From the IMG/VR virus record IMGVR_UViG_3300001598_000047: a stretch of DNA of 20,000 nt. One strand, written 5' to 3'. Source of the stretch: an uncultured virus (IMG/VR IMGVR_UViG_3300001598_000047) (taxonomy: Duplodnaviria; Heunggongvirae; Uroviricota; Caudoviricetes). Position numbers and translations under genes: made by a program. How positions within the stretch are numbered: position 1 is the stretch's first letter; every line of letters begins with the position of its first letter. The notes beneath the pieces were generated by a model, which saw only the letters and a program-made list of their open reading frames with translations, was not told the origin of the DNA and did no database searches. Shown here in pieces: positions 19,396 to 19,803 of this stretch.

Positions 19396-19803
19396 TTAAA
19401 AGTCTTCTTCGTACTAATATTCCTACTAATTTGACTAGTCATTATACTATAGCTAATATTCATCATCAGAAAATATTCCCTAATTATAAGCATCAGCAAT
19501 AGCATCTGGAATAATACCAATAGCCCCATCATTAATATCTTCTAATGTAATATCAAATAAATTTATTAATAATTTCTATTCAGCAGATCCTAAAGAAATC
19601 ATTGAAAAATAACTTGAATTATATTCAAATGTTTCGTTACCAATATTAAATGTAATATTATTTTCCTATAATTTTTTTACAGCTAATAAAAAACGTTTTG
19701 TTATCTATAATGGTAATAATTTAAATCCAAAATATTGTTGATTAGACTATGACTAATCTACTAAAAAAATAATTAATTTTGTGCTATTTTTACGTCTTGC
19801 CAT
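19396..19803 (-). CDS. Hypothetical protein, 135 aa, acidic C-terminal tail, about 12 TAG
   Basis: ATG 19803 with AAGGA upstream; frame open to TAA 19396-19398 apart from TAG; preceded by TAATAAATA. Confidence 0.75.

Follow-up and report, generated by a model that had tools for sequence, protein, structure and literature searches.

Comparative evidence that TAG is probably a glutamate codon in a 20-kb fragment of an uncultured large phage

The DNA analysed here is a 20,000-nucleotide stretch from an uncultured virus of the Caudoviricetes (IMG/VR record IMGVR_UViG_3300001598_000047; this whole stretch is called the window), in which TAG occurs in frame within genes. An earlier note on this DNA had proposed, mainly from the acidic tail of the protein encoded at 19396..19803 (- strand), that TAG may encode glutamate (Glu, E) rather than glutamine (Gln, Q). 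On comparative evidence, we consider it quite probable that TAG is read as Glu, with TAA as the sole stop codon seen in the window. The interpretation was supported by the placement of TAG on Glu columns in alignments with standard-code relatives and by a Codetta-like codon inference that ranked Glu first. The reservations of the note also stand: some TAG codons lie on Gln-rich or hydrophobic columns, and mixed Glu/Gln decoding stays compatible with the sequence.

Throughout the window (G+C content, 21.0%), TAG serves as an ordinary sense codon, at a frequency far above chance. Translation with table 11 gave short open reading frames (ORFs) only, and readthrough of TAG gave a compact set of long ones: 19 short table-11 ORFs became long ORFs, and 13 of the 17 readthrough ORFs of at least 80 amino acids (aa) had in-frame TAG. 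All 14 complete ORFs ended with TAA (TAG, 0; TGA, 0); over about 6,300 codons, TGA was absent both in frame and as a stop, and TAA was never in frame. The codon tally over 15 ORFs was TAG, 134; GAA, 251; GAG, 10; CAA, 134; and CAG, 14, with GAG and CAG each about ten times rarer than TAG. As a test of recoding, the tail sheath gene was fragmented under table 11 and, with TAG read, encoded a protein of 1361 aa that was collinear with a standard-code homolog of 1335 aa. Both general features of phages with a recoded stop codon were therefore seen, that is, many in-frame TAG codons in intact genes and no use of TAG as a terminator. The ORFs compared below are as follows (coordinates, strand, description).

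19396..19803, - strand: acidic-tail ORF, no family; 135 aa, 12 TAG; stop codon TAA at 19396-19398
17849..19387, + strand: homing-endonuclease-like ORF (DUF7487, phrog_3339); 512 aa, 26 TAG
13685..17770, + strand: tail sheath, assigned by family searches; 1361 aa, 8 TAG
10341..11105, - strand: LysM + SleB-type cell-wall hydrolase (endolysin-like; LysM-SleB below); 254 aa, 13 TAG
9669..10277, - strand: ferritin-like ORF; 202 aa, 10 TAG

From its sequence, the window appears to be part of a large phage with a T4-like sheath, the whole genome of which is probably larger than 300 kb; a 373-kb phage with the standard code is its closest complete relative. This relative (G001; IMG/VR, 373,444 nt) has terminal repeats and a sheath that is 54% identical to that of the window. 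Because the genes near the G001 sheath contained no in-frame TAG and none of its 36 tRNAs had a CUA anticodon, G001 was used as the standard-code comparator. The further relatives were 12 metagenome loci obtained by a sheath-profile scan, a contig (L083), and a 90-kb IMG/VR fragment (G002), and all relatives appear standard-coded except one metagenome contig (L054, see below). When viral contigs were scanned with profiles of the sheath and ferritin alignments, the loci obtained were all either standard-coded or distant, with no further recoded relative. The source contig of the window (23,196 nt) was not recovered by an exact 42-base search of viral contigs, nor was it among the loci obtained from metagenome contigs.

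For the codon inference, a home-made Codetta-like score was used, in which query-anchored alignments were stacked, Henikoff weights were applied, and the amino-acid log-odds for each codon were summed over columns; the window's own three database entries were dropped. Over the 51 TAG columns of the window with at least 3 homologs, the score was E 7.7, D -21.1, Q -21.8, and N -36.0, and over the 30 columns with at least 10 homologs it was E 14.7, D 4.2, and Q -12.0. The control codons (CAA, GAA, AAA, GAT, AAT, TTA, and TAT) each gave the standard residue with wide margins (for example, CAA as Q, 80.2 over 52 columns). The summed ln(E/Q) over TAG columns was 64.9 without normalisation (bootstrap 95% range, 31.6-98.5; values of 0 or less in a fraction of 0.0002 of 5000 resamples) and 29.5 nats after background normalisation, and the normalised margin stayed at 20.7-37.2 when any single protein other than the ferritin-like one was dropped. 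Of the 48 TAG columns with at least 5 homologs, 19 had Glu as the commonest residue and 2 had Gln. Taken protein by protein, the ferritin-like ORF scored E 10.7 and Q -13.0, and the sheath E 2.8 and Q -2.0.

The first-pass comparison, a tblastn search against G001 with X at TAG, pointed in the same direction. Of 119 aligned TAG sites, 29 were over E, followed by K 15, D 11, L 9, T 8, S 7, N 6, P 6, F 6, I 4, Q 4, V 4, A 3, Y 3, R 2, M 1, and H 1 (11 more lay over gaps). In the same alignments, Q sites were over Q in 31%, K in 19%, and E in 17%, and E sites were over E in 53%, D in 8%, and N in 8%. When the TAG set was scored against empirical profiles, E was best (-342.4), followed by K (-351.0), N (-365.6), and Q (-366.0). 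As for the composition, the stretches aligned to G001 contained 173 E, 99 Q, and 71 TAG in the window and 254 E and 130 Q in G001; E plus TAG thus amounts to 244, near the 254 E of G001, and Q plus TAG to 170, far more than the 130 Q of G001.

The homologs of the ferritin-like protein were 36 database proteins of 44-63% identity collected by a word-indexed search, together with G001 (37 in total; the window's own entry was dropped), and the multiple alignment, made with 23 of the 36, was free of gaps around the TAG sites. The residues found at the ten TAG positions were as follows (residue, coordinates and strand where determined, column).

Residue 85, 10023-25, - strand: E 37/37
Residue 148, 9834-36, - strand: E 37/37
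Residue 106, 9960-62, - strand: E 32, Q 5
Residue 51, 10125-27, - strand: E 22, D 11, L 2, T 1, Q 1
Residue 95, 9993-95, - strand: E 18, D 14, G 3, S 2
Residue 87, 10017-19, - strand: E 14, Q 12, K 11
Residue 17: N/D/S/E, 16 aligned
Residue 21: E/P/D/N, 16 aligned
Residue 134: N 16, M 8, S 7, and others
Residue 188, 9714-16, - strand: L 37/37

Two TAG codons are thus on invariant Glu columns, and at four more TAG positions Glu is the most frequent residue among the homologs. The window segment DFDPXFXSHEDEERXHREKIVNRLRXLNSPVP (X = TAG) corresponds to the homolog consensus DFDPEFEQHEDEEREHR..IV.RLRELN.PVP; two relatives with solved structures, 2vzb and 8w1d, agree with the homolog columns, and the ferritin copy of G002 has S, E, E, E, E, Q, E, S, E, and L at the ten TAG sites.

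In the sheath, the C-terminal 300 aa matched T4-like cyanophage sheaths at 34-37%. The TAG at residue 685 (15737-15739) lies in GIWVGXPGKG (W682, V683, G684, X, P686, G687), where all 8 relatives have Glu; the other seven TAG codons are within variable inserts. For the endonuclease, an exhaustive phmmer search gave 5,293 proteins at E<=0.001, of which the 150 homologs listed were used. Twelve of its 26 TAG columns had at least 75 aligned residues, and the commonest residue in them was Glu in eight (residues 66, 144, 154, 155, 171, 200, 263, and 291), Lys in two (89 and 344), Phe in one (295), Leu in one (370), and Gln in none. Pooled over the TAG columns, the residue frequencies were E.28, K.11, and D.10, as compared with E.50 and D.12 at GAA sites and E.22, Q.20, and K.17 at CAA/CAG sites. 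In the seven closest of the 150 homologs, residue 171 lies in KYGAEHFMKT, residue 263 in C..FESSL.N, and residue 66 in ..EWPKC. The earlier note had counted about 26 TAG, 19 Glu, and 19 Gln codons in this gene by hand, and the counts proved exact (TAG, 26; GAA, 19; CAA, 18, plus CAG, 1). It had also pointed to TAG in contexts typical of Glu; among the 150 homologs, Glu was indeed the commonest residue in all five columns concerned, namely NNIKXLPKC (E 28/82), MQXKYG (E 77/165), KTXXFKEK (E 50 and 76/167), and NSXHFM (E 76/179). TAG is therefore on dominant or invariant Glu columns in several unrelated families (ferritin-like, sheath, and endonuclease), LysM-SleB excepted.

The same pattern was found in an independent relative, L054, a 3.3-kb metagenome contig with 26% G+C. 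It contains the 5' part of a sheath gene (371 codons, 7 TAG) and two other TAG-bearing ORFs. Four of these TAG codons lie within the conserved sheath N-terminus, MNARTIQHPGVxMRxIDMSxY...QSxFIKLYG (x = TAG), and their columns were E 14/14; E 12, D 2; E 8, Q 5; and E 4, G 5, S 5. The pattern is therefore not private to the window. The sheath gene of L054 is neighboured by a leucine-rich-repeat protein (L054:1-2100, - strand) with the repeats APxLPA, APxLPA, and APDLPA (x = TAG), a motif that presumably resembles BspA-like repeats.

The acidic tail from which the proposal had started, SDDEYXLXYNDXSNXXEYXYEEDF, was confirmed: 6 of the last 24 codons of the ORF are TAG (on the + strand, CTA at 19414-16, 19423-25, 19426-28, 19435-37, 19447-49, and 19453-55), none is CAA or CAG, and the 24 also include 4 GAA and 4 Asp codons. 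The entire 135-aa ORF contains 12 TAG, 9 GAA, 2 CAA, and 0 CAG. The sole homolog found, which is encoded by a 121-aa ORF of G001 and is 30% identical over 86 aa (E 1e-6), has a tail without Gln, YDEYPDVYEDEEENDYEDDY. Its C-terminal end is ...NAIEQLYDEYPDVYEDEEENDYEDDY, and its last 20 residues include 13 D/E, 5 Y, 0 Q, and 0 K; the tail of this family is accordingly acidic and aromatic, with an aromatic terminal residue. The tail of the window protein would read DDEYELEYNDESNEEEYEYEEDF with X as E, which matches this acidic/aromatic type. In the folded part of the protein, TAG codons lie over E, E, and L of the G001 homolog. The protein itself was not assigned to a family by Pfam and PHROG searches, had no match by tblastn in 50,697 phage records, and gave an AlphaFold2 model (mean predicted local distance difference test score, 70.7) without a fold match in the PDB at E<=0.001; in the ESM Atlas, the look-alikes of the G001 homolog were unnamed viral clusters only, with scores below 0.8. 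An SSB-like identity, for which the acidic tail and the terminal aromatic residue were considered, was rejected as unsupported.

Several results weigh against the Glu assignment and were considered together with the alternatives. The ferritin-like ORF carries much of the pooled score, and when it was dropped the normalised margin of E over Q fell to 5.8 nats (41 columns). In the endonuclease, D ranked first (5.8), ahead of E (-0.6) and Q (-9.3), and the TAG at residue 295 lies on a column of F/Y/L/W/I. The TAG at residue 188 of the ferritin-like protein (HAKDXRELL) stands against HAKDLRDLL, and all 37 homologs and the two solved relatives have Leu or Met there; a recent single-base change from TTG may account for it and is the only explanation offered, and the change is a radical substitution or a polymorphism whichever residue TAG encodes. 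The tail alignment adds little, because only one homolog is available and the six tail TAG codons align in it with P, V, E, two gaps, and D, so that the columns are uninformative. Finally, ARAGORN and Rfam found no tRNA and no Rfam family in the 20-kb window, and the decoder would lie outside it.

The alternative that TAG encodes Gln (NCBI table 15), with a Glu-like pattern produced by drift from Glu to Gln at tolerant sites, is in our judgement unlikely. In its favour, the literature examined reports no other TAG reassignment for phages, and some TAG columns are indeed rich in Gln, such as residue 344 of the endonuclease (Q in 4 of the 7 closest of the 150 homologs). It is slightly favoured by one protein, LysM-SleB, which scored Q 2.6 and E -5.2 (Gln ahead by 7.8 nats). 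For this protein, 312 matches were found and 120 listed; among those listed, only 6 cover the hydrolase domain, the rest being LysM-only, and the columns were Q 4, E 1, K 1 at residue 127 (Q in 4/6), E 4, Q 2 at residue 128, and E 4, Q 2 at residue 175, with A 65, S 63, Q 59, and E 56 of 334 at residue 51 in the LysM part. However, Gln would then be needed at the two 37/37 Glu sites of the ferritin-like protein, at the 8/8 Glu site of the sheath, and at the 14/14 Glu site of L054, although the CAA codons of the window occupy Gln columns as expected, and Q was behind E by 29.5 to 64.9 nats. Nor was TAG found mainly on invariant Gln columns, the outcome that the earlier note had named as contrary to its proposal. 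Among columns with at least 5 homologs, the 11 with at least 80% Gln were occupied by CAA in 9, TAG in 0, and other codons in 2, and the 30 with at least 80% Glu by GAA in 23, TAG in 4, and other codons in 3. With expected numbers calculated from each gene's own codon ratios, TAG was at 0 of the 9 conserved Gln sites with CAR (CAA or CAG) or TAG, where 2.3 were expected if TAG is Gln. On the conserved Glu columns, the 4 TAG seen also fall short of the 7.0 expected if TAG is Glu, which counts against the Glu assignment. At a 50% threshold, TAG was at 7/47 Glu columns (13.1 expected) and 1/16 Gln columns (5.8 expected). Because 4/30 against 0/11 is by itself too small for significance, we relied on the likelihood and stratified comparisons.

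A second alternative, to which we give slightly less credence still, is ambiguous decoding, by which a Glu-charged CUA tRNA would be partly amidated to Gln (non-discriminating glutamyl-tRNA synthetase (GluRS) plus GatCAB), or two suppressor tRNAs would be present together, giving a mixture of Glu and Gln. The mean normalised ln(E/Q) per column was intermediate for TAG (+0.58, as compared with +2.15 for GAA and -2.22 for CAA), another point against a plain Glu codon; TAG is depleted on the most conserved columns of both kinds, and E and Q occur together in TAG columns at residues 87 and 106 of the ferritin-like protein and 127, 128, and 175 of LysM-SleB. The columns were then matched for conservation by the frequency of the top residue, and the mean ln(E/Q) values were as follows.

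Top-residue frequency <0.3: TAG -0.06; GAA/GAG -0.34; CAA/CAG -1.32
Top-residue frequency 0.3-0.5: TAG +0.80; GAA/GAG +0.52; CAA/CAG -1.00
Top-residue frequency 0.5-0.8: TAG -0.80 (6 columns); GAA/GAG +2.68; CAA/CAG -2.43
Top-residue frequency >=0.8: TAG +3.13 (5 columns); GAA/GAG +3.39; CAA/CAG -4.29

In three of the four strata, TAG tracked GAA/GAG rather than CAA/CAG, which argues against a mixture; the weaker overall mean is largely explained by the more frequent placement of TAG on columns of weak conservation. Since TAG occurs at invariant Glu positions, Glu would be at least the main product. An excess of hydrophobic columns under TAG (11/48, as compared with 3/84 for GAA; Fisher p 0.0009) was considered as a sign of another residue and rejected: 9 of the 11 columns are weakly determined, and the real outliers are only ferritin 188 and endonuclease 295.

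That TAG encodes some other residue (Asp, Lys, or Leu), or that the TAG-bearing genes are decaying pseudogenes, is very improbable: D and K do come next after E in some scores, the endonuclease alone puts D first, and one TAG is on an invariant Leu, but D is 28.8 nats behind E overall, the invariant Glu columns exclude D, K, and L, and decay is contradicted by 134 TAG codons without any in-frame TAA or TGA and by long ORFs that match full-length homologs.

With TAG taken as Glu, the use of the codon was compared among gene classes as the TAG share, TAG/(TAG+GAA+GAG), that is, the fraction of presumed Glu codons. The overall share was 134/395, about one third. The remaining features used for this comparison, and one terminator-like structure, are as follows.

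19337..19370, - strand: terminator-like hairpin, 14 pairs followed by a T-run
11148..13565, - strand: SbcC/gp46-like recombination nuclease subunit; 805 aa, 1 TAG as compared with 60 GAA/GAG
9018..9539, - strand: HSP20, assigned by family searches
8533..8916, - strand: clamp-loader-like small protein, assigned by family searches
6525..8483, - strand: structural (tail-fibre-like) ORF; 652 aa, 22 TAG; sole homolog found, in G001
2..2941, - strand: tail-fibre-like ORF, at least 980 aa, start at 2941 and stop beyond the left edge of the window; 21 TAG; sole homolog found, in G001

For the acidic-tail ORF, the endonuclease, LysM-SleB, and both large tail-fibre-like ORFs, the share was 0.51-0.62; smaller ORFs of the structural region had 0.31-0.56. 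The ferritin-like gene and the sheath had shares of 0.32 and 0.12, respectively, and the genes for the SbcC-like protein, the clamp-loader-like protein, and HSP20 had 0.00-0.02. The recoded codon is thus enriched in late/lytic genes relative to early ones, the timing of the genes being inferred from function. Several N-rich tail-fibre-like proteins had no family assignment in the family searches. The terminator-like hairpin was the only one found in the window (mean of shuffled controls, 0.1); it lies 26 bases downstream of the stop codon of the acidic-tail ORF and within the final 50 bases (3' end) of the convergent endonuclease ORF, and the C-terminus of the endonuclease, despite this overlap, aligns with homologs through residue 507.

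As for the origin of the code, we think it likely, on the sequence comparisons, that a ruminant-gut-type jumbo-phage lineage within a standard-code clade switched to TAG as Glu and TAA as sole stop, by means of a CUA tRNA of Glu type that the GluRS of the host would charge. In the proposed mechanism, a CUA tRNA of glutamate identity would be encoded elsewhere in the phage genome, the host GluRS would charge it, and the charged tRNA would outcompete release factor 1. A host that lacks glutaminyl-tRNA synthetase (GlnRS) would have no enzyme able to attach Gln wrongly to a CUA tRNA, and a Glu-type tRNA body would escape GatCAB. The uneven use of TAG may make the late genes dependent on the CUA tRNA, as has been proposed for phages in which TAG is Gln. 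No CUA tRNA was found among the 36 tRNAs of G001, among the 14 tRNAs of G002, or in the 12 metagenome loci.

A few observations on the relatives should be added. In G001 (L032-L050), at 213108-213179, ARAGORN called a tRNA with a four-base anticodon (gtag), and tRNA-Tyr is absent among the 36 tRNAs; the call is probably tRNA-Tyr(GUA) whose loop is unusual. For the homing-endonuclease-like gene (DUF7487), at least 9 paralogous matches were seen in G001 (e.g., 40080-41165, 318290-318979, and 325264-326301), one of which adjoins the sheath gene in the same arrangement as in the window. The sheath relative L083 (JAGBBT010000023.1; 54% identity, standard code) is a 21-kb contig binned in a Treponema metagenome-assembled genome from water-deer rectum, and the binning is either a misplaced phage contig or a hint of the host.

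If TAG is Glu in this lineage, there would be a further route of amber takeover, via GluRS and independent of the one by which GlnRS supplies Gln, and natural amber suppression would comprise a wider range of systems. Automatic translation with code 15 would then miswrite about 2% of the residues in such genomes (134 sites in this 20 kb). The exchange of Gln for Glu alters the charge, the predicted isoelectric point, residues of metal sites, and peptide masses, and because of the mass shift, proteomic searches would miss such peptides. The two assignments predict a mass difference of 0.984 Da at defined sites. In the public gene calls for the window proteins P0001, P0038, and P0043, TAG is translated as Gln, which is the table 15 pipeline default and no evidence for Gln; if TAG is Glu, these entries contain 10, 26, and 13 wrong residues, respectively.

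The viral code that the window probably uses is described in none of the papers searched: full-text searching gave no report of TAG as Glu in phages. Gut phages with table 15 (TAG as Gln) include crAss-like, Lak, Agate/Garnet/Topaz and related clades, and phAss-1 (10.1101/2021.08.26.457843; PMC9523058; PMC10607447). In the preprint of Borges et al., TAG aligned best with Gln, the phages with a code different from their hosts show only the changes of TAG to Gln and TGA to Trp, and the restriction to Gln and Trp is argued to reflect that the host GlnRS and tryptophanyl-tRNA synthetase are easily hijacked (10.1101/2021.08.26.457843). The proteomic validation, made in crAss-like phages, concerned only Gln (PMC9523058). 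A jumbo-phage survey of 2026 simply assigned code 15, and in the theta-ribozyme paper the predicted isotypes of suppressor tRNAs were Gln (69.4%), Trp (19.4%), Ile (10.0%), and Tyr (1.1%), with none for Glu.

The window resembles the table-15 phages in that TAG is an in-frame sense codon, relatives use the standard code, and another stop codon (here TAA) ends the genes, and also in the distribution of TAG, which is used mainly in structural, lysis, and selfish genes and hardly at all in those for replication and recombination. It differs in the residue, which is Gln in those phages and probably Glu in the window, where TAG did not align best with Gln in conserved columns. In the nuclear code of peritrich ciliates (NCBI table 30), both TAA and TAG encode Glu. 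The window would share with it TAG as Glu; however, that code is eukaryotic and nuclear and reads TAA as Glu too, whereas TAA in the window is the stop codon of all 14 complete ORFs and never in frame. The huge phages of Al-Shayeb et al. 2020 are likewise large, animal-associated phages with TAG repurposed, and include one in which TAG was given as 'TAG to X', the residue being unresolved from alignments (PMC7162821, legend to Extended Data Fig. 4); in the window, unlike in that case, the residue can be resolved because standard-code relatives of 45-55% identity are available.

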